Shown in pieces: positions 4,669-22,322 of a stretch of 26,207 nt of DNA. The DNA is from a virus. Lineage: Duplodnaviria > Caudoviricetes. The translations under genes were made by a program, and so were the position numbers. Below the pieces are notes generated by a model, which worked only from the letters and a program-made list of their open reading frames with translations, was not told where the DNA came from and searched no databases. Positions within the stretch are counted from its first letter, which is position 1, and every line of letters begins with the position of its first letter. The stretch lies in the IMG/VR virus record IMGVR_UViG_3300027533_000080, positions 1-26,207 of that record, one strand, 5' to 3'.

Positions 4669-4701
4669 GAAAACAATTCCTGCCTAATTGCAAAAGGGCT
4701 G

Positions 4702-4773
4702 TTGACACACGGACATTCCGTCCGTACTGAGGGTCTATCGGGCCGCACGGCCACCATACAGAGGAACGAACAA
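4702..4773 (+). promoter_or_regulatory. Expression cassette P1: sigma70-type promoter, operator, 5' hairpin, RBS
   Basis: TTGACA 4702-4707, 17-bp spacer, TACTGA 4725-4730. Palindrome ACGGAC-N5-GTCCGT 4709-4725. GGCC-GCAC-GGCC 4741-4752. GAGGA RBS. ATG at 4774. Confidence 0.85.
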
Positions 4774-5256
4774 ATGCCCAAGACCATTCACACCGCCACT
4801 GCTCCCAACGGCCAGACCTTCAAGCGCACCTCGCAGAACCGGGTCTACAGCCACATCGCGCTGGGCCGCCGCTGTAAGGTCGAAGCCCTGCGCCGCGCCA
4901 ACTCGAAAGAGGCTCAGGTCTCCGATGGTCGCAACTGGGACTATTACAACAACTGCGCCACCGGGAAGGCGACCTACTCGGCCTACGTCCTCAGTGGCTC
5001 GCCCGAGTTCGTGGCGAAAATTAAGGCCCGCGACATCGAGAGCGGCAAGGAGTTTCTCGCCAAGCACCCCGATCGCGCCGCCTACATCGCCCAGCAGCAT
5101 GCCGAGCGCCTCGCCAATGTCGAAGACACCAATTTCGACCTGTGGCTCGACCTCGGCTGGGCCAGCCGCACCGACCTCGCCCTCAAGAACGCTGCCAGCC
5201 ACGCCAGCAAGCCCTACTGGGCCGAGACCATCATCGTCGAGGCCGTCACCAAGTAA
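4774..5256 (+). CDS. Hypothetical protein (160 aa), first gene of cassette P1
   Basis: MPKTIHTATAPNGQTFKRTSQNRVYSH...; RBS upstream, strong C-ending codon bias. The ORF-track start at 4702 is the -35 box. Confidence 0.85.
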   Translation: MPKTIHTATAPNGQTFKRTSQNRVYSHIALGRRCKVEALRRANSKEAQVSDGRNWDYYNNCATGKATYSAYVLSGSPEFVAKIKARDIESGKEFLAKHPDRAAYIAQQHAERLANVEDTNFDLWLDLGWASRTDLALKNAASHASKPYWAETIIVEAVTK

Positions 5257-5262
5257 TCAACC

Positions 5263-5278
5263 GGGGGCTTCGGCCCCC
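5263..5278 (+). other. cUUCGg-capped RNA hairpin upstream of the 5301 ORF
   Basis: GGGGGC-TTCG-GCCCCC perfect stem, no U-tract, followed by AAGGAG RBS. Confidence 0.7.
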
Positions 5279-5300
5279 ACCACACCGAAGGAGAACACCC

Positions 5301-5474
5301 GTGAACGTCGAACTAGTCACCCTGATCGGCAAGCTGGAAGCTGCCCACGAAGACGCCATGAAGCTGGCCCAGAAGCAGCGCAATGGCACCATCACCCAGA
5401 AGCGCCTGCTCGCCGCCTTCTCCCTGATCCGCAAGGCGCAGGACGAGATCACGATGGCGGGTGCTGGCCTGTAA
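5301..5474 (+). CDS. Hypothetical protein (57 aa, helical)
   Basis: GTG at 5301 after AAGGAG; MNVELVTLIGKLEAAHEDAMKLAQKQ... Confidence 0.75.
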   Translation: MNVELVTLIGKLEAAHEDAMKLAQKQRNGTITQKRLLAAFSLIRKAQDEITMAGAGL

Positions 5475-5493
5475 AATAATTGCAAATGAGCTG

Positions 5494-5565
5494 TTGACAG
5501 GTGGACAGGCTGTCCGTAAAAGGGGTTATCGGGCCAAACGGCCCACCGACAAAGGGAACTTGAAA
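5494..5565 (+). promoter_or_regulatory. Expression cassette P2
   Basis: TTGACA 5494-5499, 17 bp, TAAAAG 5517-5522. GGACA-GGC-TGTCC 5503-5515. GGGCC-AAAC-GGCCC 5531-5544. AAGGGA RBS. ATG at 5566. Confidence 0.85.
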
Positions 5566-5859
5566 ATGACCTTCGAACCGATCTCAGACCTCGAAATCGC
5601 CGCCCGCAAGCTGCTCCACGACGACAACCGCGAGTACCGCATTTTCGAGGGGCAGGCCCGCAACAGCATCCGCGTCGCTTTCAAGGCCTGCTGGTGCGGA
5701 TCCTACGAGCCGCATGAGGTCGCCCGCATCATCAAGGGCGTGCAGGGCCTCGACATCAGCGTCGACGTCATCAAGCAGACCCTCACCAAGATGGTCCGCG
5801 CCAAGACCCTTCGCAGCCGTCTGATCGGCGGTCTGCGCCACTACGAACTCAACTACTAG
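5566..5859 (+). CDS. Hypothetical protein (97 aa), possible winged-helix DNA-binding fold
   Basis: MTFEPISDLEI...EVARIIKGVQGLDISVDVIKQTLTKMVRAKTLRSRLIGGLRHYELNY; helix-helix-wing pattern at the C-terminus. Confidence 0.75.
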   Translation: MTFEPISDLEIAARKLLHDDNREYRIFEGQARNSIRVAFKACWCGSYEPHEVARIIKGVQGLDISVDVIKQTLTKMVRAKTLRSRLIGGLRHYELNY

Positions 5860-5900
5860 GATCCAGCACTGGCCCACGGCCAACCGAAAGGGAGAATGAA

Positions 5901-6116
5901 ATGACCGCGCACACCGAAGAGTTCACCTTCACGAGGGCCTTCAGCCTCGACGAAGGCACCGGGACCAAGCTGAACGTCAGCGTGACCCACACAACCGCCA
6001 CCGGCAAGTTCGAGAGCGTCACCTTCTGCGATCCCGACCGCGACCAGATGGTCAGCGTTCCCGCGGATCTGTGGGACCGCGTTGTCGCCGCCGTCGAACG
6101 CCAGAGGGAGTTTTAA
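5901..6116 (+). CDS. Hypothetical protein (71 aa)
   Basis: GGGAG RBS, preceded by TGGCC-CAC-GGCCA hairpin (5870-5882). Confidence 0.8.
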   Translation: MTAHTEEFTFTRAFSLDEGTGTKLNVSVTHTTATGKFESVTFCDPDRDQMVSVPADLWDRVVAAVERQREF

Positions 6117-6119
6117 ATC

Positions 6120-6470
6120 ATGAAGGTCTACCTATCCAAAGACGGGCGGTTCGAAGCCCCCGGCAAGCAGAGTAAGGGCGCCGAGAAGATCGACGTCCCG
6201 ACCGACACCGCCGGGCTGGTCGACTACCTCAACGAACTGACCGCCAACGTCCCGCCGCAGGACGCGCTCGAGTTCGAGCCCGCCCCGCCACCGACCCGCG
6301 GACCGGATCCCGAACTGGTCAAGATCGGCGAGACCCTGCGCCAGACCAGCTGGACGACCGACAGCATCGTCGACTTCATCCTCGACGGCGCCACCGTCTC
6401 TCAGGTCGAGCGGCTGTTCTCCTGCATCGGCACCCGCTTCGCCGAACTGGTCAAGGGGGTGCGCGCATGA
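6120..6470 (+). CDS. Hypothetical protein (116 aa)
   Basis: GGGAG RBS, 3 nt after the previous stop; ATGA overlap with the next gene. Confidence 0.8.
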   Translation: MKVYLSKDGRFEAPGKQSKGAEKIDVPTDTAGLVDYLNELTANVPPQDALEFEPAPPPTRGPDPELVKIGETLRQTSWTTDSIVDFILDGATVSQVERLFSCIGTRFAELVKGVRA

Positions 6471-6976
6471 AGATCCGCCGCCCGCGCCGTCTCCCATTGC
6501 TGGAGGCGGCGCTCGAGATGGAGGCGCCGCTGGGCCTCTGCATCCACCGCTCCGCCGCCTTCGTGTTCGACGCTCCCGGCTCGATCCTCGTCTTCGGCAC
6601 CATCCAGCCGGTCGAGCGGTCGGAGGCCGTCGAGGGCGACAGCGCGGTGCCGTTCATCCACTGCTGGGCCGAGTACCGCGGCCATGTCATCGCCCCGACC
6701 ACGATCGAGCGGACAGGCGGCAAGCTCTGCCCGCTGACGAAGGCCGGTTACTACGCCATAAACGGGGTCTGTGACGTCCACACGCTGACCCGGCCCCAAC
6801 TGCTCGCCCTCGATCGCCAACACGGTCTCAGGCGCGCTCTGAGGCTCAACACCGAGTGCCGCAGCGGCGCCAGCTTCGGCGGCACCCTGCTCGATGCCGC
6901 TGGCGTGGCGTGGAAGGATTACGGCGATGGCGGCGTCGTGCCGATTTATGTCGAAGACCTCGAAAATAGTGCTTGA
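6467..6976 (+). CDS. Hypothetical protein (169 aa), possible transglutaminase/papain-like Cys-His fold
   Basis: ATGA coupling. LCIHRS...LVFG...HCWAE..G.VI.PT motif. Stop TGA lies inside the P3 -35 box. Confidence 0.7.
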   Translation: MKIRRPRRLPLLEAALEMEAPLGLCIHRSAAFVFDAPGSILVFGTIQPVERSEAVEGDSAVPFIHCWAEYRGHVIAPTTIERTGGKLCPLTKAGYYAINGVCDVHTLTRPQLLALDRQHGLRRALRLNTECRSGASFGGTLLDAAGVAWKDYGDGGVVPIYVEDLENSA

Positions 6977-7044
6977 CGACCGGACATGGTGTCCCTAGAG
7001 AGGGGTTATCGGGCCGCTGGCCCATCCGACCACGGAGACACGAA
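6973..7044 (+). promoter_or_regulatory. Expression cassette P3
   Basis: TTGACG 6973-6978, 17 bp, TAGAGA 6996-7001. GGACA-TGG-TGTCC 6982-6994. GGGCC-GCT-GGCCC 7011-7023. GGAG RBS. ATG at 7045. Confidence 0.85.
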
Positions 7045-7230
7045 ATGTACGACATCCAGAACACCATCCAAGAGCTAGAGTTCGCGATCAAGGGCATCGC
7101 CCACATCCGCGCCAACCTCGCCAACCAGACCCGCACCAAGCAGGGCCGCTACAACGTCGACCAGCAGCTGGAAATGCTCTCTGCCCGCGTCCGCCTCGGT
7201 CTGCTCACCCTGCAGCAGGAAGCCAAGTAA
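7045..7230 (+). CDS. Hypothetical protein (61 aa, helical)
   Basis: MYDIQNTIQELEFAIKGIAHIRANLANQ...; first gene of P3. Confidence 0.8.
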   Translation: MYDIQNTIQELEFAIKGIAHIRANLANQTRTKQGRYNVDQQLEMLSARVRLGLLTLQQEAK

Positions 7231-7231
7231 C

Positions 7232-7732
7232 ATGACCTACCTCACCGCAGCCCCAGCCCCCACTGCCGCCCAGCTGGCCGAGATCGAGAAGCTGCAGAAG
7301 CAGGCCTCGGACGCTCTCCGCCGCCGCGAGGAAAGCTGGGAGCGCAGCGACACCGACGGCTTCCTCAGCCAGTGGGCCAACGGCATGACCGCCCAGCTGA
7401 ACGACGCCAAGGTCGCGATCCTGAAGAACGGCGGCTACGCCCGCTTCCGCGTCCTGTGCGACGGTGACGGCAACGTCGTCTCGACCAAGGAATATTGGTT
7501 CACCAACCCCTACAGCTTCGTCCGCGAGGGCAAGTGGCGCCTGCCCGAGAGCCTCGCCGACGGTCTGGGCCGCAAGTGGATCCCGGTCGGCGACAAGAGC
7601 CGCATCCAGAAGCGCCTCGGCCTGCACGAAGAGAGCCGCTGGTTCCCGGCCTACGCCGAGATCACGGGCGGAGGCAAGGGCCTCGGCGGAGCCGCCTCCT
7701 GCTACGTCGGCACCTTCCAGAAGGCCGCATGA
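7232..7732 (+). CDS. Phage hypothetical protein (166 aa) with ESWERSDTDGFLSQWA motif
   Basis: 1 nt after the previous stop with AGGA RBS. The motif is recalled from uncharacterised phage proteins (not searched). Confidence 0.85.
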   Translation: MTYLTAAPAPTAAQLAEIEKLQKQASDALRRREESWERSDTDGFLSQWANGMTAQLNDAKVAILKNGGYARFRVLCDGDGNVVSTKEYWFTNPYSFVREGKWRLPESLADGLGRKWIPVGDKSRIQKRLGLHEESRWFPAYAEITGGGKGLGGAASCYVGTFQKAA

Positions 7733-7740
7733 AATAGTTG

Positions 7741-7812
7741 TTGACGCCCGGTCAGAATGTCCGTAATGGATGTCCTACCGGGCCAGTGGCCCATCCGAAC
7801 TGGAGAGTGAAC
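7741..7812 (+). promoter_or_regulatory. Expression cassette P4
   Basis: TTGACG 7741-7746, 17 bp, TAATGG 7764-7769. GGTCA-GAA-TGTCC 7750-7762 (one mismatch). GGGCC-AGT-GGCCC 7780-7792. GGAGAG RBS. ATG at 7813. Confidence 0.85.
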
Positions 7813-8010
7813 ATGGAAAAGTACATCCGGGTCAAGGCTTGGCTCCCCTGCCGCACCAGCAAGAGCTACGGCTTCTACCCCACCCCCAAGTACATCGGCC
7901 AGATCGTCAACGATGACGGATCACTCACCGACGTCACGGGCAAGTGCGGCACCCGCCGGGCGGCTTTCCTCCGCGCCCTCAACATCCTCAACCAGCGGGG
8001 CTGCAAGTAA
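7813..8010 (+). CDS. Hypothetical protein (65 aa, basic)
   Basis: MEKYIRVKAWLPCRTSKSYGFYPTPKY...; first gene of P4; TAATG coupling to the next ORF. Confidence 0.8.
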   Translation: MEKYIRVKAWLPCRTSKSYGFYPTPKYIGQIVNDDGSLTDVTGKCGTRRAAFLRALNILNQRGCK

Positions 8011-8171
8011 TGAGCTACGTCCACATCCGCACTTACACCGACGCCCGTCTGGCAGACCTGATCCGCTCCCACGGGCGCGGCGGCGACGGCGAGATCGATG
8101 TCTCTTTCCTCGCTGCGCTGACCGCCGAACTGGTGCGGCGTGGCACCAGCTACATCTCGAACAAGGGGTAA
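8010..8171 (+). CDS. Hypothetical protein (53 aa)
   Basis: TAATG overlap; MSYVHIRTYTDARLADLIRSHG... Confidence 0.75.
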   Translation: MSYVHIRTYTDARLADLIRSHGRGGDGEIDVSFLAALTAELVRRGTSYISNKG

Positions 8172-8175
8172 TTTC

Positions 8176-8370
8176 ATGGCCGACATCCGCATCCAGAACG
8201 AGGGGACGATCTTCCTCTTCACCCCGATCTCCGACGAGGCGATCGAGTGGTGGGAGACCCATGTCGAGGAAGGCATGACCTACTGCGGCGCGCATGTCGC
8301 CGACCACCGGCCCGCCGCGGCCATCATCGACGGCCTGATCGAGGCCGGTTTTGAAATCGAAGGGATCTGA
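8176..8370 (+). CDS. Small acidic hypothetical protein (64 aa)
   Basis: AAGGGG RBS; MADIRIQNEGTIFLFTPISDEAIEWWETHVEE...; 13 D/E versus 2 R and no K. Confidence 0.8.
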   Translation: MADIRIQNEGTIFLFTPISDEAIEWWETHVEEGMTYCGAHVADHRPAAAIIDGLIEAGFEIEGI

Positions 8371-8372
8371 CA

Positions 8373-8654
8373 ATGGAACGACTGACTACCAACGACCAAC
8401 TGCGGGCCGCCAAGCGCGACTGGGCGCTGGCCCAATGCGCCAAGGAGAAGGCGGCGGTGGCCGACCTGATCATCGCCGCGGTGCGCTCGACCAAGGGCCG
8501 CATCATGGACGATCCCGGCAACGACGCCGCCCAGCGGATCAACCAGTTGCGCGGCGTTCGCCGTCTGGTCGCCTCGCTCGGCGATGCGCTGGTCACCAAG
8601 GATCCCGGCTTCGACCTGCCGCGGTTCTTCAGCGACTGCGGGTACGGCTCGTGA
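8373..8654 (+). CDS. Hypothetical protein (93 aa)
   Basis: AAGGGA RBS. Helical, with C-terminal D(P)GFD..RF..DCG motif. Confidence 0.8.
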   Translation: MERLTTNDQLRAAKRDWALAQCAKEKAAVADLIIAAVRSTKGRIMDDPGNDAAQRINQLRGVRRLVASLGDALVTKDPGFDLPRFFSDCGYGS

Positions 8655-8845
8655 ACGGCGCCTACTGGCTGAACCGCCGGGTCAAGATCGCGGCATGGAC
8701 GGACCTGTTCATGCGCGGCGAGACCCACGCCACGGTCATCAAGGTCGGGCACAAGATCCTCACCGTTCGCGGCGAGCGGTCGGGCCGCCAGTTCAAGTTC
8801 CGGATCCCCGGAGACGAGGCAAACCCGGCCCTGACCATCTGTTGA
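8651..8845 (+). CDS. Hypothetical protein (64 aa), SH3-like beta pattern
   Basis: GTGA overlap; RVKIAAWTDLFMRGETHATVIKVGHKILTVRGERSG. Stop TGA lies inside the P5 -35 box. Confidence 0.75.
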   Translation: MNGAYWLNRRVKIAAWTDLFMRGETHATVIKVGHKILTVRGERSGRQFKFRIPGDEANPALTIC

Positions 8846-8913
8846 CAGGGGGACAGGTTGTCCCTACTGACAATGTTACCGGGCCATCTGGCCCATCACT
8901 CAGGAGACTGAAA
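8842..8913 (+). promoter_or_regulatory. Expression cassette P5
   Basis: TTGACA 8842-8847, 17 bp, TACTGA 8865-8870. GGGACA-GGT-TGTCCC 8850-8864. GGGCC-ATCT-GGCCC 8881-8894. AGGAG RBS. ATG at 8914. Confidence 0.85.
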
Positions 8914-9144
8914 ATGACCATCACCAAATACACCCACAGCAACATCGGCCTCGTCACCCGTGTCGACGCCATCACCGAGGATGGCGAGCGCGTAAACGTC
9001 GCAGCGTTCGACAACAACGAGGGCGGCAAGTTCGCCTTCGGTTGCTTCGTCGACGGCCTCGCCCGCGATCGGGCCGCACCGTCGCTCTTCAACGAAGACA
9101 CGGGCGAGTACACCGTCGGCACGATGGGCCAGCTGGTCGGCTGA
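8914..9144 (+). CDS. Hypothetical protein (76 aa)
   Basis: MTITKYTHSNIGLVTRVDAITEDGERVNV...; first gene of P5. Confidence 0.8.
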   Translation: MTITKYTHSNIGLVTRVDAITEDGERVNVAAFDNNEGGKFAFGCFVDGLARDRAAPSLFNEDTGEYTVGTMGQLVG

Positions 9145-9347
9145 TGTACGTGATCCGCCGCACGGATCAGGGGGGCGGCTTTGTCGCTCCCCCGGGATCC
9201 AAGAAAGCCTACACGTTCCAGCGCCTGCGGGCGCGGATCTTCAAGACGCGGGAGGCCGCCGAGGCTGACCGCTGCGTCGACAACGAGGTGGTCGAGCCGC
9301 TGCTCCAGTGCCTCGAGGTCATCGTCGTTGATGGGAGGAAGCATTGA
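9144..9347 (+). CDS. Hypothetical protein (67 aa)
   Basis: TGATG coupling; MYVIRRTDQGGGFVAPPGSKKAYT...ARIFKTREAAEADRC. Confidence 0.8.
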   Translation: MYVIRRTDQGGGFVAPPGSKKAYTFQRLRARIFKTREAAEADRCVDNEVVEPLLQCLEVIVVDGRKH

Positions 9348-9556
9348 CCAGATTTCAGAAGGGACAGGCATATTCGGACCGGCTGGTCGAGAAGCGCCGG
9401 GAGGCAATCGAGGAAGCCATCAAGGGGGCGGCCAGCGTGACGGTCGCCCTGAAGCGGCTGGAGAAGCTGGAGAAGGATCCGAGGTTCGCGGCCTACAATG
9501 TCGCCAGCCTCAACAACAAGGGGCGCCTGATCCTTCGTATGAGGCACGAACCATGA
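9344..9556 (+). CDS. Hypothetical protein (70 aa, basic)
   Basis: TTG start in a TTGA overlap, GGGAGG RBS. Confidence 0.7.
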   Translation: MTRFQKGQAYSDRLVEKRREAIEEAIKGAASVTVALKRLEKLEKDPRFAAYNVASLNNKGRLILRMRHEP

Positions 9557-9699
9557 AGTACACGATCGTAAAGCTGATCGACGGCTACGGGGTAAAACCC
9601 GACAACACTGAGTTGCCAATCAGCGTCCACGAGACCCAGCGCGAAGCCGAGCGCGCTGTGCAACGCTACAAGGCAGCAGACAAACGCAGGGAGGGTTAA
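9553..9699 (+). CDS. Hypothetical protein (48 aa)
   Basis: ATGA overlap, GAGG RBS; MKYTIVKLIDGYGVKPD...HETQREA. Confidence 0.7.
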   Translation: MKYTIVKLIDGYGVKPDNTELPISVHETQREAERAVQRYKAADKRREG

Positions 9700-9702
9700 G
9701 CC

Positions 9703-10152
9703 ATGGGCTACACGCATTACTGGACGCAGACGCGGGATTTCACGCCGCAGGAAATGAACAAGATCAACGGGGAGCTGCTCGACATCGTCAAGGTCAGCGG
9801 GATCCCGCTCGGCGGCTGGGATGGCACCGGCTCGCCGGAGTTCACGACCGAGACGGTCGGCTTCAACGGCAAGGGCGATGATGATGGTCACGAGACCTTC
9901 CGCATCAACGCCACGCGGAAGCTGCCGTTCGAGGGCGCCTCTCCCGACCGGCTCGGCTGGGCCTTCTGCAAGACCGCGGCCAAGCCCTACGACATCGTCG
10001 TCGTGGCGTGCCTGACCGTGCTGGCCGCCAAGCATGGCTTCGACGTCTCCAGCGACGGCGGGGCGAAAGACTGGGAGGATGGCGTCAAGCTCGCCTCCAA
10101 GGCTCTGGGCGAGATCTTCACCAACCCAATGAGAAGGGAAGAGGCAGCATGA
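9703..10152 (+). CDS. Conserved-looking hypothetical protein (149 aa; MGYTHYW/HETF/FCKT..KPYD/SSDG motifs)
   Basis: GGGAGG RBS. Motif set recalled from a widespread uncharacterised family (not searched). Confidence 0.85.
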   Translation: MGYTHYWTQTRDFTPQEMNKINGELLDIVKVSGIPLGGWDGTGSPEFTTETVGFNGKGDDDGHETFRINATRKLPFEGASPDRLGWAFCKTAAKPYDIVVVACLTVLAAKHGFDVSSDGGAKDWEDGVKLASKALGEIFTNPMRREEAA

Positions 10153-10355
10153 CACAGGACGACATCAGGCGGATCCGGAAGGGCATGGGCATGTCGCAGC
10201 GTCAGCTGGCGCAGGCCCTCCGCCTCGGCCCCAATGGCGATCGCACGATCCGGCGGTGGGAGAGGGGAGTGATCCCGATCACCGGGCCAGCCAGCCTCGC
10301 CCTCGAGTATATGGAGAAGGAGAATGGCAAAAAGCAAAGAGCAGCTGGAGCATGA
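10149..10355 (+). CDS. XRE/Cro-family helix-turn-helix regulator (Aca-like position)
   Basis: ATGA overlap, GAGG RBS. MTQDDIRRIRKGMGMSQRQLAQALRLGPNGDRTIRRWERGVIPITGPASLALEYM is a clear HTH_3 pattern. Confidence 0.9.
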   Translation: MTQDDIRRIRKGMGMSQRQLAQALRLGPNGDRTIRRWERGVIPITGPASLALEYMEKENGKKQRAAGA

Positions 10356-10497
10356 AGCCCGGCAGTTTTACGAGCGGCAGCAGGCACGGGGACCGAGCGC
10401 GATCCCCGTCGGCGCCTGCATCGTTCGTCCCGGCAGCAAGGGCGTGATCGGCATCAAAGCGGTGCCGGTTGCGCCTGATCCTGAGAAGAAAGCATAG
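10324..10497 (+). CDS. Hypothetical protein (57 aa), absent from the ORF track
   Basis: GGAGAAGGAG upstream of ATG 10324. MAKSKEQLEHEARQFYERQQARGPSAIPVGACIVRPGSKGVIGIKAVPVAPDPEKKA*. Overlaps the HTH 3' end and, convergently, the 1311-aa gene end. Confidence 0.55.
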   Translation: MAKSKEQLEHEARQFYERQQARGPSAIPVGACIVRPGSKGVIGIKAVPVAPDPEKKA

Positions 10498-13400
10498 CGC
10501 CGCCTCCCAGTAGGACGCCGGTCCACACTGGGAGGCCTTTCAGCCCGTTCTTGGTGACCCAGTCGCGCACCGCCGCGGGCCCGCCTCGAGCCAGCAGATC
10601 CCGCAATTTCTGGACGTCTGGCCGCAGGCTGGTGGCAAGCTCGGCGGCATATTTCTGGCGCACCTCGTTGCGCGCTGCGACCTCCGCCGGATAGTCCGAC
10701 GTCGCCAGCCGCTGCTCCAGCCCCGGGATGCTCCCGGTGGCCTCCAGCAGGCTCTTGGTGGCCTCCCCGGTGCCTTGCTCTTCGGGCAGGTTCGAAGGGG
10801 CATAGTTGCTGTCGAACCGGCCCAGCTTGCCGCCGTTGCCCTTGCTGAATTCCTTGACCTTCTTGGCCGCCGCCGCGGTGTCGTCGTTGAAGCTGGTGAC
10901 GACGATCCCGCCGTCGCCATTGTCGACCACGTCGAGGCCTGCGGCGACCGCCTTGTCCATCGCCTCCTGACGTCCCTCCGGACCGAAGTAGAGGCCGTTC
11001 AGCTGCCCTGCCTTGTGGGTGGATACCTGCGGCACGAAGATGTTGGCGCCGACACCGTGCTGGACGTTCTCGATACCGAACAGCTGCCCCGCGGTGAGCA
11101 TGGCGTTGCGGCTGTGGGGATCCATCGCCGGGCCGCCCTTGGATCCGCCGACCATCTCCGGCGACAGGCCGACCAGCGGGCGATCCATGAAGGCCGGGTT
11201 GCGCTGCAGGCCCTCGACCGGGTCGTTCCAGAAGCCCTCGCCGCTGACGGTCGGGCGCTGGTACAGCTGCATCGACGACAGCACCGAGTTCTTGGGGTTG
11301 CCGCCAGCCGCGGCCATGTCGGCAGCGAAGCGTGCGTTCAGCTCCGGATCCGCGCTCATGCCCGGGAACTCGCCGAGGCCTCCGCCCGGCGTGAATTCCC
11401 GCGACAGGATCGCCGTGTTGCGCTCGATGCCGCTGCCGATGCCCTGCCGGGCGTAGACCAGCGCCTCTTCCTCGGTCGGCGGCGTGGCGCGCTTCCCGGC
11501 GGCGTACTTGGCGTTCTCTTTGTTGAGGAAGCTCTGCTTGCGTTCCTCGACCCAGACCACCTCCTGCATGTTGGGAACGGACGCATCGGGAGGCAGCGTT
11601 CCGGCTGCGCGGGCGCGATCGGTCGCCAGTACGTTCTCTCCGGTCAGGAAGGCATGCTCATTGGGCTGGAAAGCGCGATCGAAGGCCGTCTGGCCCGGGT
11701 CTGGCTGGTACCCTAGCGCACGCCCGTGCCAGAGGTCTGACGGGGCTGTGAAGCCCATCGGCACGGTCGGATCCTTGGCGACGCCATAGGGCCCGGTCTT
11801 CTTGCCGAGGGTGATGTCTTCCGGGGTCAGGTTGATGAAACCGCTGTTCTCGCCGACATCGCCATAGCCGAGGTTGGCCGCCTTGGCGCGATCGCCGGTC
11901 GTGACCTGCGGCTCCTTGCCGGTCAGGACGCGCTCGTTGTGGTGCCGGAGCCAGAAGTTGGTCTCGTCGACCGGCGAGGCCTGCGGGCTGTAGACGGCGC
12001 CGCCGCGGGCGAACAGGCTCGCCATCTCCGGCGTGTCGCTGACCTCGTCGATGATGCCGCGGCTCTTGTCGTACCAGCCGAGGCCTTCCTGATTGGCATT
12101 GGCGATCTTGGCATCGACCGCGTTGCGCCAAGCCGCCAGCGCGTTTGGTGCAACGCCCGGCGACCCCATGACGTTGCCTTCGGCATCGAGCCGCAGGTGC
12201 TTCCCGGCGGTGGCCCGCTCGAGCGCACCGGCATAGTCGGTGACGCCTTCGAACGCCCGCTCGAGCGCCGGTTGCCTGCCGCCAGTGATCTCCTCGCTCG
12301 CCTGCATGGTGGCGCCGGTCAGGTCGAGCGGCTGGTCATTGCGCTTGAGGATGTCGAGTTTGCTGTCGTCGAACACGACGTAGTTGCGGGCGTCGTTGAA
12401 CCTCGAGCCGCTGCCCCCGCGGTCGAGATGGCTGAAGCCGGAGAAGCCAGCCTCCTTGAAGATGTGGTTGGGGTCGCCGTACTGCTTCCTGCCGAGGATC
12501 TGCGCCTGCTTGTGGACCGCCGCGCCGCTGTCCCCCGACAGGTCGCCGAAGCCGTGTGCCTCCATGATGGCGGCCAGCGCCGGGCCTTTCGGCTGGCTGG
12601 AGAGGGGTGCCTCGAAATCGAGCAGGTCTTCCGGCTCGGCCTTGATATTGGCTTCGTACATGGCGCCGGGCTGGTCGTAGGCGCCCTTCTCCTTGTTCCA
12701 CACGGCGGGGGGCCGGTAGAGGTTGGCCGCGTCCCGTTCCTCTGACAGGTAAAGCCCATGCCCGCGGGTCTGTGTCCCCTCGCCCGTGCCGAGCTTGTCC
12801 ATGTCGAACCTGTCGAAGACGTGGGGCGAGCCGTGATAGCCGGTGATGTCTGCCTGCATGCCTTCGGGTTGTAGCGGCAGCGTGACGTCCTCGGCACTCA
12901 GCCGCGGCCCGGCATCGCCCGGCCACTCGGGGATCTTCTCGGCCCGCTTGACGATCTGCAGCTCGTCGGGACGGTCCTGCGTCAGCCATGGCGGCGTGTC
13001 GAACATCTGCTTCCTGATGGCCTCGTCAGACCAGCCGAGGGCCTTGTAGCTCTGCTCCATTTTTAGCCGCTCTTGGACGTTGCGCGCCTCGACCTCGCCC
13101 GCGCTGCGCCGGTAGCCCTCGCGCATGGCTTCAGTGTCGAGCGCATCGCGATATGTCTTCAGCTGCCGCTTGACCGCGGGGTCGTCCCAGATCTCATCCG
13201 GCAGCGTGTCGAGCAGGTCGGTGAAGCTGTCCATCTGGCGCTGGATCTCTTCGACCTCTGGACCGCCCCAGACCGGAGGGTTTTCTCCAACCCTGCTGCC
13301 GATCGGGAAATCTCCGGAGACCTGCGGCAGGCCGTGCTGCAGCTCATGGGCCGCGGTCGACACCATCAACGGCTTGGGCCGATTGGGGTTGAACGTGACC

Positions 13401-14389
13401 ACATGCTGCTCGGGATAATAGGCGCCGCCGATATTGCGCCCGCTGACATGGCCGCCGACGCGAAGGGGCTTGTCGAACAGGCCGCCAGTGAAGCCGGGGT
13501 AGTATTTCTCCAGCTCGGGATGCGAGATGACGTTGGTCGCCGCCGTTGCCTTGCCCTGATTGGGGAGTATGCCCTTCTTGACGTTCAGCCCGAGGTCCGA
13601 GATCTCGAACTTGTAGTCGCCGTGCTGCTTGTACATGCCCCCGGTCGCTTTGTAGATCTCGTCGCGACTGGCGCCAGCGGCCTCCATCTTCTCCGCCAGC
13701 GCCAGCATGTCTGGCTTGAGCTTGCCGGGCAGGAACATCGACAGCGCGGATCCGCCCTTGGCGAGCGCGGGCAGGGCGAACTTGGCGCCACCTGCCAGCG
13801 CCATCCCGGCGGCGTGACCGGCACCGGGGACGAGGTCGAGCGCGGCCATGCCGAGGTTGCCAGCGGCCTCGCCGAGGCGCCCGCTGGTGAGATCCTGATA
13901 GCCCTCCGTGGCGATGTCGAGCGAGCCGTAGGGGGTCAGGTCGAGGGCGTCGGCGATCGACCCGCCGATGTGCCGTGCGAGGCGTGGATCCTCGACACCT
14001 GCCGCCTTGGCGAGGCCCGAGGCGCCTTCCTCGGCGATGTCGCGGAAGCTGGTCTCGCGGTTGCGGATCTCACCCTGATCGGCGAGGCGGTTCTTCCAGT
14101 AGCTCGGGGCGCTGGTCGGCCTGACCTCCTCGAGCGGAGCGGTGACCTCCTTGGCGGTCTTGCGCTTCTCGAACCCGGCCAGCGCGCTCTTGGGCGCCGC
14201 GGCCTGCTCGAAATAGCGGGTGGGCTCGACGCCGATGTCCTTGAGGTCGCGGGTGAGATCAGGGCTGACCTTCGAAGCCTGCTCGGCAATCGCGTCCCGC
14301 AGCATCTGCTTGGTCGCATTGATCGGGACCGTGATCTGCACGATCGGACCGCTCGCGAGGCGGATCGAGCGAGTGACCTTGCCCGGCAC
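10454..14389 (-). CDS. Large polyvalent protein (LPD23-like + HExxH metallopeptidase + ADP-ribosyltransferase-like + HhH-glycosylase-like), probably virion-injected
   Basis: 1311 aa. KFEISD (13595-13612); HELQH (13334-13348) with YRRSAGEVEARNVQER; YHGSPH..FD....GTGEG...G.GLYL (from 12838) through NYVVFD (12368-12385); GWY...YSPQ...K...DLW..R...QEVVW (12085-11552). Confidence 0.8.
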   Translation of the reverse strand: MPGKVTRSIRLASGPIVQITVPINATKQMLRDAIAEQASKVSPDLTRDLKDIGVEPTRYFEQAAAPKSALAGFEKRKTAKEVTAPLEEVRPTSAPSYWKNRLADQGEIRNRETSFRDIAEEGASGLAKAAGVEDPRLARHIGGSIADALDLTPYGSLDIATEGYQDLTSGRLGEAAGNLGMAALDLVPGAGHAAGMALAGGAKFALPALAKGGSALSMFLPGKLKPDMLALAEKMEAAGASRDEIYKATGGMYKQHGDYKFEISDLGLNVKKGILPNQGKATAATNVISHPELEKYYPGFTGGLFDKPLRVGGHVSGRNIGGAYYPEQHVVTFNPNRPKPLMVSTAAHELQHGLPQVSGDFPIGSRVGENPPVWGGPEVEEIQRQMDSFTDLLDTLPDEIWDDPAVKRQLKTYRDALDTEAMREGYRRSAGEVEARNVQERLKMEQSYKALGWSDEAIRKQMFDTPPWLTQDRPDELQIVKRAEKIPEWPGDAGPRLSAEDVTLPLQPEGMQADITGYHGSPHVFDRFDMDKLGTGEGTQTRGHGLYLSEERDAANLYRPPAVWNKEKGAYDQPGAMYEANIKAEPEDLLDFEAPLSSQPKGPALAAIMEAHGFGDLSGDSGAAVHKQAQILGRKQYGDPNHIFKEAGFSGFSHLDRGGSGSRFNDARNYVVFDDSKLDILKRNDQPLDLTGATMQASEEITGGRQPALERAFEGVTDYAGALERATAGKHLRLDAEGNVMGSPGVAPNALAAWRNAVDAKIANANQEGLGWYDKSRGIIDEVSDTPEMASLFARGGAVYSPQASPVDETNFWLRHHNERVLTGKEPQVTTGDRAKAANLGYGDVGENSGFINLTPEDITLGKKTGPYGVAKDPTVPMGFTAPSDLWHGRALGYQPDPGQTAFDRAFQPNEHAFLTGENVLATDRARAAGTLPPDASVPNMQEVVWVEERKQSFLNKENAKYAAGKRATPPTEEEALVYARQGIGSGIERNTAILSREFTPGGGLGEFPGMSADPELNARFAADMAAAGGNPKNSVLSSMQLYQRPTVSGEGFWNDPVEGLQRNPAFMDRPLVGLSPEMVGGSKGGPAMDPHSRNAMLTAGQLFGIENVQHGVGANIFVPQVSTHKAGQLNGLYFGPEGRQEAMDKAVAAGLDVVDNGDGGIVVTSFNDDTAAAAKKVKEFSKGNGGKLGRFDSNYAPSNLPEEQGTGEATKSLLEATGSIPGLEQRLATSDYPAEVAARNEVRQKYAAELATSLRPDVQKLRDLLARGGPAAVRDWVTKNGLKGLPVWTGVLLGGGAMLSSQDQAQPAPL

Positions 14390-17887: not shown

Positions 17888-18657
17888 GGCGCGCTCAATT
17901 CGATCGCAAGGGCCCCAAAGCTGGCACCGCCGGGCGCGCTGCCCCATGTGATAGTTGCGGACGTTTCGCCGCTGTCGCGGGACATGATTTCAATCCCGGC
18001 GCCGGGAACGGAATAGCTGGTTTCGGCCAATTCGGTATAACCGGCCCGTTGCGTGACCAGCGTTGCGCTGGGGGAAAAGACGGCGCCGATGATCGGGTTT
18101 TTCGACAATGGAACGCCGCCCAAGACCGGGGCCGGGGTGCCCGACGTTATGTTGTGCTGGTTGGCCGCTGCGCGCTTGGCCGCCGCGCCGGTTGCCGACA
18201 AGCCGACAACTTTCAGGGCGAATAACCCGCCGCCTGTGCTGCCCGACTGGCCCGAGGTAATGACATGGGGCGTGGCGCTGGTCACAAGGCTGTTGCGGAT
18301 CCAGCAAGTCATGGCATCGGCCCCGGCCCCCTTGAGGCACGATACGCCGATTGTGTAGGTTCCGCCTTGGTCGTCGCTGCATAACGGGTTGTTGTTGCCG
18401 GTCGCCGCCGCAATGACAATAATCAGGTCGCCAACTGCCGGGGTAATGGTGACGGCCTTATCGCCCGCGGTTGTGTTGAAAATTGAGCCGGAAGCATAAA
18501 GCGTCACGGCTGGCGTCGGCAGGGCATCGGGGTAGAACTTGCGCCACACCCCGGCGACCCTGACCCAGCCGCTTGCCACTGGCTTCCACACCCCGGCGAC
18601 CTTGACCGAGGGCGTGGCGGCCTTCCAGACGCCGCCGACCCTGACGTTCATGCTCAT
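17884..18657 (-). CDS. Tail-fibre-associated / receptor-binding protein
   Basis: 257 aa. Three V(R/K)V(G/A)GVW(K/R) repeats, then a beta-rich domain (GDLIIV). ATGA coupling to the tail fibre. Confidence 0.7.
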   Translation of the reverse strand: MSMNVRVGGVWKAATPSVKVAGVWKPVASGWVRVAGVWRKFYPDALPTPAVTLYASGSIFNTTAGDKAVTITPAVGDLIIVIAAATGNNNPLCSDDQGGTYTIGVSCLKGAGADAMTCWIRNSLVTSATPHVITSGQSGSTGGGLFALKVVGLSATGAAAKRAAANQHNITSGTPAPVLGGVPLSKNPIIGAVFSPSATLVTQRAGYTELAETSYSVPGAGIEIMSRDSGETSATITWGSAPGGASFGALAIELSAP

Positions 18658-21600
18658 GTGTAGACCAGCCAGATGTCGCCATCGGCGCCTCCGCTCGGGG
18701 CCGAGACCGAGGCGGTGATTGGCAGCTGTGCCGCGGGCACCTTGGTGCTGGCGTCGAGGCTGGCAACGCCGCTGGCCGCCGCCTTCTGGCTGGTCGGGAT
18801 ATAGTTGGCAAGGGAACTGGCAAGCGCGACTGCGCTGCCGCCCTGCGAAAGCGTGCCGCCTACGTTGAGCGTGCCTGAGACAACCGCGTTACCAGTGACA
18901 TCGAGCGCGGCCCCGCCCGCCGGGGCTGCAACAGTGGTATTGCCAATCGAGATGCCCTGCCGGAAATAGCCGAAGCCATTGGTGACGCCGAACATGGCAA
19001 CTTCGTCACTGTGCGGATTGGCCCCCTGCGGGATGCGATAGGCCCACAGGCCATTGAGGATGTCCCCCACATTCGAGCGCCCGTCCAGCTTGAAAAACCA
19101 GCCGTTCTTTGCCGTGTCATCGAGATTGAGGGTTGCCCCCAGATCGGCATTGAGCAGGAAGCCTCCCCATGCCGATACGCCACTCAAGGTCTTGAGCCTG
19201 ACCTTCACCGTCGAGGCCGGGGTATCCATGACGAAACCGTAGGTGGCATCGAACAGGAGATTGCCGCTCATCCGGTCGCCAGCCTTGTTGACCGGCGTAT
19301 AGGTCAGCGCGCCCGTGACATCGGCACTGGTGAGTGTGACCGCGCCAGAGCGGGTATTGAAGGTCGTAACCCCGCCGCCGCCCAAGGTCTGGATCTTGTC
19401 GTAGATCGCGTTCTTGGTGGCGGCCTCGAGCTTGCCGTCCCATGAGGCGCCATAGGCCTCGTCCGGGATCGTCACCGCGCCGACGAAATTGCCGGTGCCG
19501 TTGACGTTGAGCAGCGGGGTGCCATAGGCCGTGGCCGAGGGGTAGCCGATGTTGACCTTGCCAACGAAGCTGCTGCCGCCCGCGCCCAGCCTGATCGGAG
19601 GCGTGCCAGCCGCCGCGTCGAACTGGAACTCGAAGGCATTGGCGGCGGCGATCTGCGAGGCCCGCCGCTCGTAGCGCATGGTCGATTGGCCGCTCGCTGA
19701 CTTGAACGAGAAATCAACCAGATCGACACCCGCGAGGATCGAGGCATCAGTCTCGAACAGCGCGCCGTGCATGCCGACGATCGAGCCGATCGTCAGCTTG
19801 ACCTTGCCGTAGGAGCCGCCCGTGCTTTCGAAGCTGTTGGTGCCAGCGATGGTCTTGTCGACCTTGAGCGCGCCCATGTTGGTGACGTCGGAGCTGTTGG
19901 CCTTGCCGACCAGTGCCGTGTTCAGCACCTCCATCTGGTCATAGACGGCGTTCTTGGACGGCGCGATCGTGGTGACGCCGTTCCAGCTGAGGCCATAGGC
20001 CGTGTCGCTGACGGCGCCGCCGCCGCCCAGCGTCTCGATCTTGTCCCAGAGCGCGTTCTTGGTTGGTACCTGCAGGGAGCCATCCCATGATGCGCCATAG
20101 GCTTCATCGGGCACGGTAATGGGAATTTGGGATGCAACGACAGTGCTGATGTTCAGCTTCGACACGCCGCCGATCTGGAAGGTATGCGTGCCGGTCGTGT
20201 CGAAGATCAGGCCGCCGTAGGGCTGGATGCTCGACGACCACGCGGCCCCGTTGATGAAGATGCCGCCGTAGTAGCTGCTCGCATCGCCTTGCAGGGTGAG
20301 GGTCGGGTTGGTGGTGGCAAGCGCCAGATTGCCACTCAACGACCCGCCGGTAAGGGGCAGGTAGTTGGCCAGCGCCGATGTGCTGGCCTTGCCTGCCAGC
20401 GCGTCAAACACCGCGTTCTTGGTCGGGACAGCGGCGCTGCCATCCCAGCCTGCGCCATAGGGATCATCGGCAACGGTCAGCACTGTGCCCGCCGCCATGC
20501 CGATACCGCTCGGGGTGACGGTGGCGATGACGGCGTTGTTGGCGCGCAGTTCGACGGTCGAATTTCCGTTAACCTGCAGGCCGGAGCCAAGGTAGCTGGT
20601 GATGCTGCCGACAAGATAGTCGCTGCCGGAATAAGTGGTGCGCCAATGAAGGCTGCTGACGAAGCCATCGGCCCAGATGTTGACGGCGGGATTGGGCGTG
20701 CGAACGGTCAGGTCGCCGGTCAGCGTGCCGCCAACTAAGGGCAGGTAGGCCCCTCCCCCAAGGGCGAGGCTTTCGATCTTGTCGTAAACGGCATTTTTCG
20801 ACGGGGCGACGAGGGTGATGCCGTCCCATGATGGGCCGTAGGCGGTGTCGTCGACCGTGCCCGCGCCGCCCGTGCGGACAAAGACAAAAAAGGCGCCCGC
20901 CGTGAAGTTGCCGCCGTTCGATGGAGCGAGGCGGATGGCATTGAGTGGCTTGGTATTGTCGGCGACGAAGACGCGCTGCGGGTTGCTGCTCGGTTGCCAG
21001 CACAGGCGCGGCCCGCCGACAGCATTGCAGGCATAGATGATGGCGGCGCCCGATCGGCCCGACGTGGCGTTGGTTCCGGCCAGCGAGAAGCCGGTCGTGC
21101 TGATGGACGCGCCAGCGCCGTCGTAAGCCTTATAGTCCCCGTTTGTGGTGTAATAGCTGGCGCCGTTGTTGGTGCTGACGAAGAGGGACGGGACGCCGGA
21201 GGTGGCGCAGACCACGGCCTCCGAGATCACCAGTATGTCGCTGACCCCGGCCAGCCCGGTGAAGGTCACCTCGGGGACGTTGGTCGACCAAGCCCAGCTG
21301 GCCTGCAGCTTCCAGCCGCCGCCGAGGCTTCCGCCGCCGCTGGCGGCAGCAATCAGCGCATCGACCTCGGCCTCGGTGTAGTAGCGGGTGTCATGGGTGT
21401 GGCCGGTGTCTGACTTGCCGTTGAGAGCGGCCTGAAGATCGGTCTGGGCGCTCAAGGTGCCGGTGATGTTGCCCCATACCGCGCTGGTCGCGGTGCCCGG
21501 CGGGACCGCCCAAGCCCCATCGGCGCGCAGGAAGTTGGTGATGCCGAGGCCGGATGGCGGGACGAGGCCGCGCACGCTGGTCGTGAAGATGGCATCGGCG

Positions 21601-22322
21601 GCCTTGGCATTGAGGGCAGTCTGCAGGTCGATCTGGTTCGACAGGACGCCCGTGATCGTGCCCCACACGCCGCCTGTGCTGCTCGAGATCTCGGTGTAGG
21701 CCGAGCCGGTCCAGCGGTAGGTCTTGCCGGTGTCGAGGGCGACGTAGATCTTGCCGGTCTCGCCGGTCGCCGGGAAGGCGGCGAGGTTGGCATATTCGAG
21801 GACGTCGTCGACGTAGCTGGGCAGGTAGATCGCGCTGATCTTGATCGTGCCGTCGAGCGGAACGACGCCATTGGCCGCGCCCTTCTGGGTCAGCGGGATA
21901 TAGTTGGCGAGGTCGGTCGTGTTGGCCTTGGTGGCGAGGCCCGCGGCCAGCTCGGCATCGGTCGCATAGGCGTCGAGCGCGGCGACATTGGCCTTGCTGT
22001 CGAGGGCGGCCTGCAACCCGTTGACGTCGCTGATCGCGTGGTGGTGCCCGACGAGGCTGTAGTTCGCCAGCGCCGAGGTCAGCTCGGCATCGGTGACATA
22101 TCCGCCCAGCTCGGCGTGGATCCCGTCGATCGCAGCGGCCAGCTCCGTGTCCATGGTGAAGCTGGCGAGCGGGTACTCGGCGCCAACCCCGAGGGCATCG
22201 GTCCCGACGATGACCTGCGGGCTGGCGGTCAGCCGGTGCCCGAGGTTCCAGTTGTTGACCGAGATCTGGCGTGCCGGATTGTCAGGCCCGGTGGCTTGGA
22301 CGATAGGCCGGATCTCTATCAC
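18654..22322 (-). CDS. Long modular tail fibre protein
   Basis: 1222 aa, G/A/T/S-rich. H.H.ISDV.GLQAALD.K, LPSYVDDVLEY...FP.TGE.GKIYV, YLPL.GGTLTG, GVTTFN.RSGAVTL, and C-terminal APSGGADGDIW fibre motifs. Confidence 0.85.
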   Translation of the reverse strand: MIEIRPIVQATGPDNPARQISVNNWNLGHRLTASPQVIVGTDALGVGAEYPLASFTMDTELAAAIDGIHAELGGYVTDAELTSALANYSLVGHHHAISDVNGLQAALDSKANVAALDAYATDAELAAGLATKANTTDLANYIPLTQKGAANGVVPLDGTIKISAIYLPSYVDDVLEYANLAAFPATGETGKIYVALDTGKTYRWTGSAYTEISSSTGGVWGTITGVLSNQIDLQTALNAKAADAIFTTSVRGLVPPSGLGITNFLRADGAWAVPPGTATSAVWGNITGTLSAQTDLQAALNGKSDTGHTHDTRYYTEAEVDALIAAASGGGSLGGGWKLQASWAWSTNVPEVTFTGLAGVSDILVISEAVVCATSGVPSLFVSTNNGASYYTTNGDYKAYDGAGASISTTGFSLAGTNATSGRSGAAIIYACNAVGGPRLCWQPSSNPQRVFVADNTKPLNAIRLAPSNGGNFTAGAFFVFVRTGGAGTVDDTAYGPSWDGITLVAPSKNAVYDKIESLALGGGAYLPLVGGTLTGDLTVRTPNPAVNIWADGFVSSLHWRTTYSGSDYLVGSITSYLGSGLQVNGNSTVELRANNAVIATVTPSGIGMAAGTVLTVADDPYGAGWDGSAAVPTKNAVFDALAGKASTSALANYLPLTGGSLSGNLALATTNPTLTLQGDASSYYGGIFINGAAWSSSIQPYGGLIFDTTGTHTFQIGGVSKLNISTVVASQIPITVPDEAYGASWDGSLQVPTKNALWDKIETLGGGGAVSDTAYGLSWNGVTTIAPSKNAVYDQMEVLNTALVGKANSSDVTNMGALKVDKTIAGTNSFESTGGSYGKVKLTIGSIVGMHGALFETDASILAGVDLVDFSFKSASGQSTMRYERRASQIAAANAFEFQFDAAAGTPPIRLGAGGSSFVGKVNIGYPSATAYGTPLLNVNGTGNFVGAVTIPDEAYGASWDGKLEAATKNAIYDKIQTLGGGGVTTFNTRSGAVTLTSADVTGALTYTPVNKAGDRMSGNLLFDATYGFVMDTPASTVKVRLKTLSGVSAWGGFLLNADLGATLNLDDTAKNGWFFKLDGRSNVGDILNGLWAYRIPQGANPHSDEVAMFGVTNGFGYFRQGISIGNTTVAAPAGGAALDVTGNAVVSGTLNVGGTLSQGGSAVALASSLANYIPTSQKAAASGVASLDASTKVPAAQLPITASVSAPSGGADGDIWLVYT

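Follow-up and report, generated by a model that had tools for sequence, protein, structure and literature searches.

A five-promoter array of small phage genes with a probable Aca-like repressor

How are the 20 small genes of a phage array controlled, and what might they do? The discovery of anti-defence genes has mostly relied on their linkage to Acr or Aca genes already known. The array described here lies in a window of 26,207 nucleotides (IMG/VR record IMGVR_UViG_3300027533_000080), in antisense orientation among podovirus-type virion genes of a phage whose host is likely an alphaproteobacterium.

Layout of the array and of its promoter element

As the initial annotation described, the ORFs (48-169 aa) are organized in units of 2, 4, 2, 5 and 7, each headed by a copy of the promoter (Table 1). 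Nearly all have an RBS or overlapping stop and start codons, and their GC3 values (0.71-0.92) are as in the virion genes. The five promoter copies reported at 4702, 5494, 6973, 7741 and 8842 were all found, on the + strand, versus 0.01 expected in shuffled sequence, a post hoc figure as the search pattern was derived from the alignment of the five copies themselves. No sixth copy was detected in the window at up to two mismatches.

Table 1. Features of the array, with positions in the window.
Feature	Position	Strand	Remarks
P1 element	4702..4776	+	-35 4702-4707; palindrome 4711-4723; -10 4725-4730; leader hairpin 4740-4752; RBS; c1 ATG
c1, 160 aa	4774..5256	+	phrog_32956; homologues in Caulobacter jumbo phages
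Internal GGGC..GCCC hairpin	5263..5278	+	precedes c2 RBS; no promoter
c2, 57 aa	5301..5474	+	
P2 element	5494..5568	+	palindrome 5503-5515; -10 5517-5522; hairpin 5531-5544
c3	5566..5859	+	
Degenerate internal hairpin	5871..5881	+	precedes c4
c4	5901..6116	+	
c5	6120..6470	+	
c6, 169 aa	6467..6976	+	TGA stop inside P3 -35 box
P3 element	6973..7047	+	palindrome 6982-6994; -10 6996-7001; hairpin 7011-7023
c7	7045..7230	+	
c8	7232..7732	+	homologues in Rhodobacter and actinobacterial phages
P4 element	7741..7815	+	palindrome 7750-7762; -10 7764-7769; hairpin 7780-7792
c9	7813..8010	+	
c10	8010..8171	+	
c11	8176..8370	+	
c12	8373..8654	+	
c13	8651..8845	+	stop inside P5 -35 box
P5 element	8842..8916	+	palindrome 8851-8863; -10 8865-8870; hairpin 8881-8894
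c14	8914..9144	+	
c15	9144..9347	+	67% identical to Erythrobacter phage protein
c16	9344..9556	+	
c17	9553..9699	+	
c18, 149 aa	9703..10152	+	very large unnamed, mostly viral family
c19, 68 aa, XRE/HTH_3	10149..10355	+	second-last array gene; proposed P1-P5 repressor
c20, 57 aa	10324..10497	+	last array gene; convergent on 1311-aa virion gene

Each copy of the element opens with a -35 box (TTGACR); the 17-bp spacer behind it holds a palindrome, GGWCA-N3-YGTCC, and is followed by a TA -10, a leader hairpin (GGGC..GCCC) and an RBS. The motif of the initial annotation stands in all five copies with small corrections, the palindrome being perfect in only three of them (the exceptions are the P1 right arm, CGTCC, and the P4 left arm, GGTCA) and the P1 leader hairpin lacking its fifth base pair. 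Over 21 distinct element copies, three of the five palindrome pairs are invariant in 21/21, the 3-nt centre is free and there is no compensatory change, a pattern expected for a protein site. An E. coli-type promoter scan returned no promoters, as each of the five copies has A or G at position -7. Since the -10 boxes fit the E. coli consensus poorly, the label 'strong' is unproven for these promoters.

In four of the five copies the leader hairpin folds; its z-scores, between 0 and -2.2, are unremarkable. Its arms resemble the half-sites of c19-family operators. It sits behind the -10 and lacks a U-tract. On these grounds, the -10 being of the sigma70 type, the second palindrome was not retained as an N4-type hairpin promoter or as a terminator. 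A terminator scan found one site, inside c6, versus 4.9 in shuffled sequences, and an Rfam search was negative at E up to 5.

The c19 protein, its relatives and the turnover of the cargo

The XRE HTH noted in the last unit is borne out, c19 matching Pfam HTH_3 with 27 bits (cut-off 23); R32, T33, R35 and W37 are invariant across 32 homologues. Searching PDB sequences with a c19-family profile identified Aca3 as the best solved relative (E 1.3e-5, over the HTH only), with Aca2 at 0.02 and Aca1 absent at E up to 1, and the HTHs of the HigA2 and MqsA antitoxins score nearly as well as Aca3. PDB sequence searches with c19 alone, c18 or c6 yielded nothing useful. Structure prediction suggests that the c19 product likely dimerises: its predicted homodimer scores 0.66 versus 0.15 for the best control, with pLDDT of at least 86 and runs agreeing in at least 95% of contacts. 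The mark applied to this score is reached by 20/30 solved dimers and 1/23 monomers, and since HTH dimers are already solved, this result may reflect mere likeness to them.

Comparison of sequences establishes the element, shows that the cargo turns over and that c19 is retained, and links the c19 family to the promoter design across unrelated phages. Searching related phages for the motif and for cargo turnover, as proposed with the initial annotation, revealed 10 contigs in which the element is kept and the cargo exchanged; this set is what remains of 20 other contigs after setting aside nine with neither the palindrome nor any array gene, and L109, which is the same phage. c19 is kept at the same near-terminal place in 3/3 relatives that reach the end of the array. 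The cargo amounts to 19 genes in the window and 15 more in the close relatives. The element was not found, by patterns or by eye, in L118, in Paracoccus phage Psul1 or in the RcXuper, CcrBL9, RcKemmy and R6L regions. In GTDB genomes, there were three single matches, all devoid of array genes and of the palindrome, and hence no prophage copy. The sequencing runs listed for the phage include no RNA run.

Beyond these relatives, 80 loci in other phages have a c19 homologue located downstream of the same promoter-palindrome-hairpin arrangement, and most of these loci have a single element; the cultured phage Pan3 (ON968454.1) carries such a single-unit version. The strict palindrome core of the window occurs 18 times in 90 kb of upstream DNA versus 5 times in 592 kb elsewhere, an approximately 24-fold enrichment. 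With a loosened pattern, defined after inspecting the loci, the counts are 44 upstream versus 3 elsewhere, and 10 of the 26 clusters with sufficient upstream DNA have no match to it. The leader hairpin is present upstream in 68/80 loci and absent from 12/80, and the palindrome lies at a fixed distance for 50 of the 51 distinct family HTH sequences that have the hairpin. Across the family, the loops of the GGGC..GCCC stem vary in length and sequence, with one C-G to A-T swap (L148/L149/L202). In a reciprocal test, 42 new loci were found through the hairpin, with both palindrome and HTH in 10, the palindrome only in 5, the HTH only in 6 and neither in 21 (p = 0.008).

A Glu preceding RTIRRWE tracks the operator (17/19 loci versus 1/58 others), kinship being uncontrolled in this comparison. 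In c19, however, this residue is Asp, and both other Asp loci are without the strict window operator. Topic searches of mostly non-subscription literature found no paper on the c19 family, which supplements of the Aca papers may nonetheless list, and motifs of the HTH helix, the operator, the leader hairpin and the c18 N-terminus were mentioned in none.

The proposed circuit and known Aca systems

These comparisons make c19 a probable Aca-like repressor of the five-promoter regulon; since no cargo matches a known Acr, we do not classify it as an Aca. Host sigma70 polymerase would read P1-P5 on phage entry, and a c19 dimer would then bind GGWCA-N3-YGTCC between -35 and -10, closing the five promoters once a predicted burst of early expression is over. 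Its R32 and R35 would recognise the GG that is invariant in each half-site, like R44 and R47 of Aca1. As no intrinsic terminator lies between the units, transcripts from all five promoters may run into c19, which would create one feedback loop. The leader hairpin might add a further level of control, at the mRNA, a role about as probable as that of a plain 5' stabiliser. We consider the repression circuit alone likely. The complete proposal, in which the five-element array drives 19 exchangeable small genes and c19, the c19 dimer shuts all five promoters and the cargo likely includes counter-defence proteins, seems to us somewhat likelier right than wrong.

Control of several operons by an Aca has already been published (Feussner et al. 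2026, PMC13551039; PMC11065993), also with DNA and RNA motifs. Like the array, the acr-aca1 and acr-aca2 systems reported there (PMC13551039) combine a small terminal HTH, a core-promoter palindrome, a hairpin immediately behind the predicted start site, additional intergenic hairpins, one regulator for several operons and insertion among virion genes. In contrast, up to three promoters are reported for Aca1 and Aca2 versus five in the array, and no known acr gene was seen in any c19-type operon. For Aca10 and Aca12, hairpin motifs are present, yet no binding was observed (PMC13551039). The main text of that article never uses the word 'alphaproteobacteria'.

The Aca1 protein of Pseudomonas phage JBD30 has GGCAC-N3-GTGCC as its binding site, where R44 and R47 sit on the two Gs, and shares with c19 the GGNNN-N3-NNNCC pattern followed by TA and an RxxR in the recognition helix (PMC8633003). 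The half-sites differ (GGCAC versus GGWCA), c19 and Aca1 show no sequence match, and binding is demonstrated for Aca1 whereas that of c19 is predicted. The SIRV2 Aca8 regulon similarly has one conserved sequence before many small unrelated genes and one proposed repressor; this sequence precedes 11/13 early genes and was used as bait for anti-defence genes (PMC11065993). It differs by its archaeal TATA/BRE promoters, by its mostly single genes at genome ends, and by its proven Acrs and measured early expression, whereas timing is only predicted for the array.

Possible functions of the cargo and alternative readings

Part of the cargo would inhibit host defences in the proposed scheme, a step to which we give an even chance. 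Searches of each ORF for Acr families, as suggested with the initial annotation, matched none: 0/20 window ORFs and 0/68 further cargo proteins correspond to Acr or other anti-defence families in Pfam and NCBIfam, general libraries that novel Acrs could escape. The initial annotation had proposed a regulon of anti-CRISPR, anti-defence or host-takeover genes; the regulon gains comparative support from the terminal HTH, the five operator promoters and the cargo turnover, while such functions for the cargo are ones that we infer, with 0/88 Acr matches.

Two cargo proteins were characterized further. c6 is possibly a papain/transglutaminase-like enzyme, with invariant Cys25 and His65, and it has no match among cultured phages. 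The c18 family has thousands of members, with invariant N55, E64, K90 and Y96. The fold of c18 can be aligned with a 556-aa cluster in which ArdC-N is present (TM 0.75 by query). Modelling of c18 reached a pLDDT of 96.8 from an alignment versus 37 from the single sequence. The alignment-based model gave no PDB match by Foldseek at E up to 0.001, a best Z of 5.0 by VIA-align and matches only to unnamed proteins in a viral structure library; these model-based searches show neither a function nor a new fold.

The same c19 circuit might instead serve general early accessory or host-takeover genes (growth inhibition, superinfection exclusion, niche adaptation) that play no part in countering immunity, which we regard as rather unlikely. 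The lack of Acr matches among the 88 cargo proteins would fit this, as would the c1, c8 and c18 homologues found in ordinary small-gene clusters of cultured phages. The 97 ORFs behind c19-family promoters fall into 57 families, including a beta clamp and a pentapeptide repeat protein, which point the same way, but also Mom and TAGT DNA-modification genes, which together with the ArdC-N link suggest conflict functions. Moreover, hypervariable small genes just before a conserved HTH correspond to the acr-aca pattern (PMC9410906).

It is improbable that another protein, a host factor or a phage protein such as c3, reads the palindrome, or that c19 is an activator. The 4.9 kb of L263 contain three operator promoters but not an HTH, 5 of the 15 new operator loci lack an HTH within 3 kb, and the contig is a 26-kb fragment outside which further regulators may lie. 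However, the operators are retained in L107 and L114, from which c3 is missing, searches in either direction find operator and HTH together, and the site between -35 and -10 overlaps that of the polymerase, where Aca proteins repress (PMC9410906).

The analogy with T4-type PeSL cassettes drawn in the initial annotation is not supported, and a role of the elements as promoter-terminator recombination cassettes that shuffle ORFans, with regulation incidental, is very improbable. PeSLs likewise place a repeated sigma70 promoter, a GC stem-loop and an RBS before variable-region ORFans (PMC2839356, PMC4122927), element-adjacent genes of the array change often, some elements look mosaic by eye (L098, L099, L114), and P4 and c8 are shared with the lambdoid phage contig L116 (87% over 592 bp). 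Nevertheless, PeSL stem-loops are terminators, described in the available text of PMC2839356 with no mention of an operator or repressor, whereas the array hairpin has no U-tract and sits behind the -10. A concentration of gene swaps at promoters, and hence PeSL-type shuffling, is unsupported by the sequences compared, junctions having changed at 8/15 promoter sites versus 18/48 other sites (p = 0.37, a small sample), and the single element of most family loci cannot serve as a repeat. Contigs of four sequencing runs aligned to the array contained no promoter-to-promoter joint, an uninformative result. Finally, a reading of c18-c19, and of the single units elsewhere, as toxin-antitoxin pairs of the HigBA type whose antitoxin represses itself is hardly credible, for although the cargo-then-HTH gene order and the HigA2 and MqsA matches fit, the genes upstream of the HTH span 57 families, none of which matches a toxin family, and in L094, whose promoter bears the operator, and L160 the HTH directly follows the promoter without a partner gene.

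Returning to the Aca-like circuit, c19 may tentatively be seen as the founder of an undescribed, widespread Aca-like family, probably of alphaproteobacterial phages, with dual silencing via a GG-N3-CC operator and an mRNA hairpin of the same half-sites. The array would then be a five-promoter, 20-gene counter-defence island, and its motif a bait for anti-defence proteins including c18; taken as a whole, this is possible but doubtful. Together with its HTH, the promoter-palindrome-hairpin signature identifies a distinct pool of hypervariable genes, almost all unannotated. The five natural operator variants, with the helix and operator variants of the family, make DNA-versus-RNA recognition by an HTH of 55-70 aa testable. 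If some of the cargo proteins are inhibitors, the signature would open counter-defence discovery in phages for which the literature searched holds no Aca link.

The promoter element and its genomic setting

All five copies of the promoter element were found where the initial annotation had placed them (4702, 5494, 6973, 7741 and 8842), against 0.01 expected by chance for a pattern derived from the five copies themselves. No sixth copy was detected in the window with up to two mismatches allowed. The elements (P1-P5) comprise a -35 box (TTGACR), 3 nt, a palindrome (GGWCA-N3-YGTCC, the candidate operator), 1 nt and a TA-type -10 box, followed after 5-7 nt by AYC, a leader hairpin (GGGCC-N3/4-GGCC(C)), an RBS and an ATG. 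They head 20 small ORFs (c1-c20) in units of 2, 4, 2, 5 and 7, also as annotated, and two promoterless hairpins precede c2 and c4. As the only site yielded by a terminator scan lies within c6 (one, versus 4.9 in shuffled sequences), transcription would run from every promoter through to c19, the XRE-type HTH protein proposed to repress P1-P5.

The window is an entire contig of 26,207 bases, whose minus strand carries podovirus-type virion genes. The major capsid, head-tail adaptor Ad3, head closure Hc3 and DNA-ejection proteins were recognised using PHROGs, and a 749-aa protein without family match is the probable portal. The nearest other phage found by its capsid (L007, 82% identity) has the gene order capsid, 159-aa gene, 77-aa gene, Ad3, Hc3 without the array, which is therefore accessory at its site. 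L007 also harbours the Cpn10 gene, and it has no tail-fibre-like gene at the corresponding position. The middle and C-terminal parts of the 1311-aa protein are mosaic among relatives, with 26% identity over residues 687-1126 in contig L114, and the DNA of a second assembly of the phage is 93% identical; between near-identical strains this gene varies more than the array.

Features of the array and its surroundings in the window
Feature	Position	Strand	Remarks
Array	4702-10497	opposite to virion genes	flanked by 77-aa gene and 1311-aa gene
c18	9703-10152	+	unnamed family
c19	10149-10355	+	68-aa XRE/HTH_3 protein
1311-aa gene	10454-14389	-	LPD23 domain, probable ejection protein
1222-aa tail-fibre-like gene	18654-22322	-	degenerate internal repeats at 19370-20870
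GroES-like co-chaperonin (Cpn10)	22334-22744	-	between probable portal and tail-fibre gene

We infer an alphaproteobacterial host, because cargo homologues occur in Caulobacter, Erythrobacter, Rhodobacter and Ruegeria phages, because a GapR-like gene is present on a contig with part of the array, and because the -7 T is missing from all five -10 boxes. This T is reported to be absent from most alphaproteobacterial sigma70 promoters (PMC8407463). Cargo homologues are present in actinobacterial phages too.

Cargo turnover and retention of c19 in close relatives

Scanning metagenomes for the promoter-hairpin combination retrieved 21 contigs, including the window's own. The others correspond to the same phage (1), to relatives with the palindrome and array genes (10) and to contigs with neither (9). 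The second assembly differs by a single base between 4600 and 10600, and cargo turnover thus lies between lineages: in the 10 palindrome-bearing relatives gene order is reshuffled, with 15 gene types, grouped by eye, that are not in the window. Among 21 distinct element copies, three of the five palindrome pairs are invariant and the other two are kept in 19 and 18 copies, the 3-nt centre varies freely and no pair is altered on both sides, as expected of a site for a protein rather than of a folded structure.

All three relatives extending to the 1311-aa gene retain c19 (54, 95 and 100% identity), and in one of them (L094) a candidate operator promoter directly precedes the c19 homologue. The window also shares c8 and P4 (87% over 592 bp) with a lambdoid contig encoding RusA, exonuclease VIII and RecT (L116; shared part in the 7229-8589 region), in whose 16 kb no c19 homologue was matched. 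Junctions were changed in 8/15 cases at promoters versus 18/48 elsewhere (p = 0.37); gene exchange focused on the elements is thus not shown. On present evidence the elements are probably not PeSLs, the promoter-stem-loop elements of T4-type phages.

The HTH family and its proposed operator across other phages

Using an alignment of c19 and nine homologues, we found 125 viral stretches and kept 80; the 80 loci analysed are L118 and 79 of these, the window's own phage being omitted. In the 90 kb upstream of the HTH genes the strict window core was counted 18 times, versus 5 times in 592 kb elsewhere. A pattern loosened after viewing the data gives 44 versus 3 occurrences and matches 16 of the 26 clusters, formed at 80% identity, whose upstream DNA is long enough. 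By patterns likewise drawn up after viewing the loci, the leader hairpin, mostly GGGC-AATGAA-GCCC or GGGGC-AAT-GCCCC, lies upstream of the HTH gene in 68/80 loci, and of the 51 distinct HTH sequences accompanied by this hairpin, 50 have the palindrome at a fixed distance. One locus (L129) is identical in design to the window's.

A reciprocal scan by hairpin gave 105 loci, of which 42 were left once loci already among the HTH set (37), loci with under 1.5 kb of downstream sequence (20) and duplicates (6) had been removed. Palindrome and HTH occur together in 10 of the 42, the palindrome only in 5, the HTH only in 6 and neither in 21 (p = 0.008); one HTH-only locus is cut at a contig edge, and others have a different palindrome and a changed helix. 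Since unrelated contigs (L091 near 8000, L093, L095) harbour the window's hairpin behind TTGAC promoters without palindrome, it can occur independently of the operator. In four loci (L265, L229, L256, L221) the same hairpin goes with a more distant HTH, in which the first arginine is missing, and with another promoter palindrome, in L265 GCGCC-N3-GGCGC paired with a Gln, possibly a specificity switch.

The backbones that carry these modules are unrelated, and genes for terminase, portal or methyltransferase are often close by (60 neighbours selected from 114 scanned). Most are single units, and the window's five are the maximum among the loci compared. In contig L263, three operator promoters and an internal hairpin lie within 1.1 kb (841-1925), and its 4.9 kb contain no HTH gene. 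In L185 (6404-6586) and L176, the HTH gene is duplicated, in tandem or partially, within one operon. A single unit adjoins the terminase gene of the cultured phage Pan3, whose recorded host is a cyanobacterium, at odds with the alphaproteobacterial host proposed here.

Proposed recognition, known systems and cargo

The 32 c19 homologues compared all share R32, T33, R35, W37 and E38, and the GG...CC operator ends are nearly invariant across the family. Aca1 is reported to bind GGCAC-N3-GTGCC, with R44 and R47 contacting the two Gs (PMC8633003); this operator geometry and RxxR spacing equal those of the c19 family, suggesting a similar mode of recognition. Among proteins of solved structure, the family profile best matched Aca3 (E 1.3e-5, over the HTH only), with weaker matches to HigA2 and Aca2; Aca1 was not among the matches listed at E up to 1. 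A c19 homodimer is predicted (0.66 versus 0.15 for the best control) through residues 23-27, 45-51 and 54, leaving the recognition helix free, a score that could possibly reflect likeness to solved HTH dimers. A Glu before this helix tracks the operator (17/19 versus 1/58, loci counted irrespective of kinship); the Asp found in c19 does not (0/2 loci).

The leader hairpin fits an RNA structure, because its stem is conserved while loops differ across the family. Its arms in the window equal half-sites that serve other family members as operators. Aca1 and Aca2 bind their hairpins and Aca10 and Aca12 did not, according to PMC13551039, which describes control of up to three operons. With motifs at both the DNA and the RNA level and several operons under one putative regulator, the locus would work like acr-aca loci, and similarly to the SIRV2 Aca8 regulon as reported in PMC11065993. 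It has no known acr partner, and c19 is therefore not classed as an Aca. Among the papers searched by motif strings and by topic, none deals with this HTH family.

Searches of the window ORFs in PHROGs, Pfam, NCBIfam and PADLOC revealed no Acr or defence family, with weak HTH matches only. Five of 68 further cargo proteins have Pfam matches (Mom, TAGT, beta clamp, pentapeptide repeat, DUF6011). Mom counters restriction. In c6, Cys25 and His65 are invariant; 2/39 family members match transglutaminase-like proteins weakly, and a YunG-like identity (at 0.89) is a lead. A counter-defence role of the cargo is suggested by architecture and a few neighbours, not by homology. The c18 family counts 3,587 relatives as 50%-identity clusters, with invariant polar residues N55, E64, K90 and Y96. 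The structure model of c18 is confident, and an Atlas model of the protein aligns to a 556-aa cluster with ArdC-N, which we regard as a lead only. The c18 family merits study in its own right.
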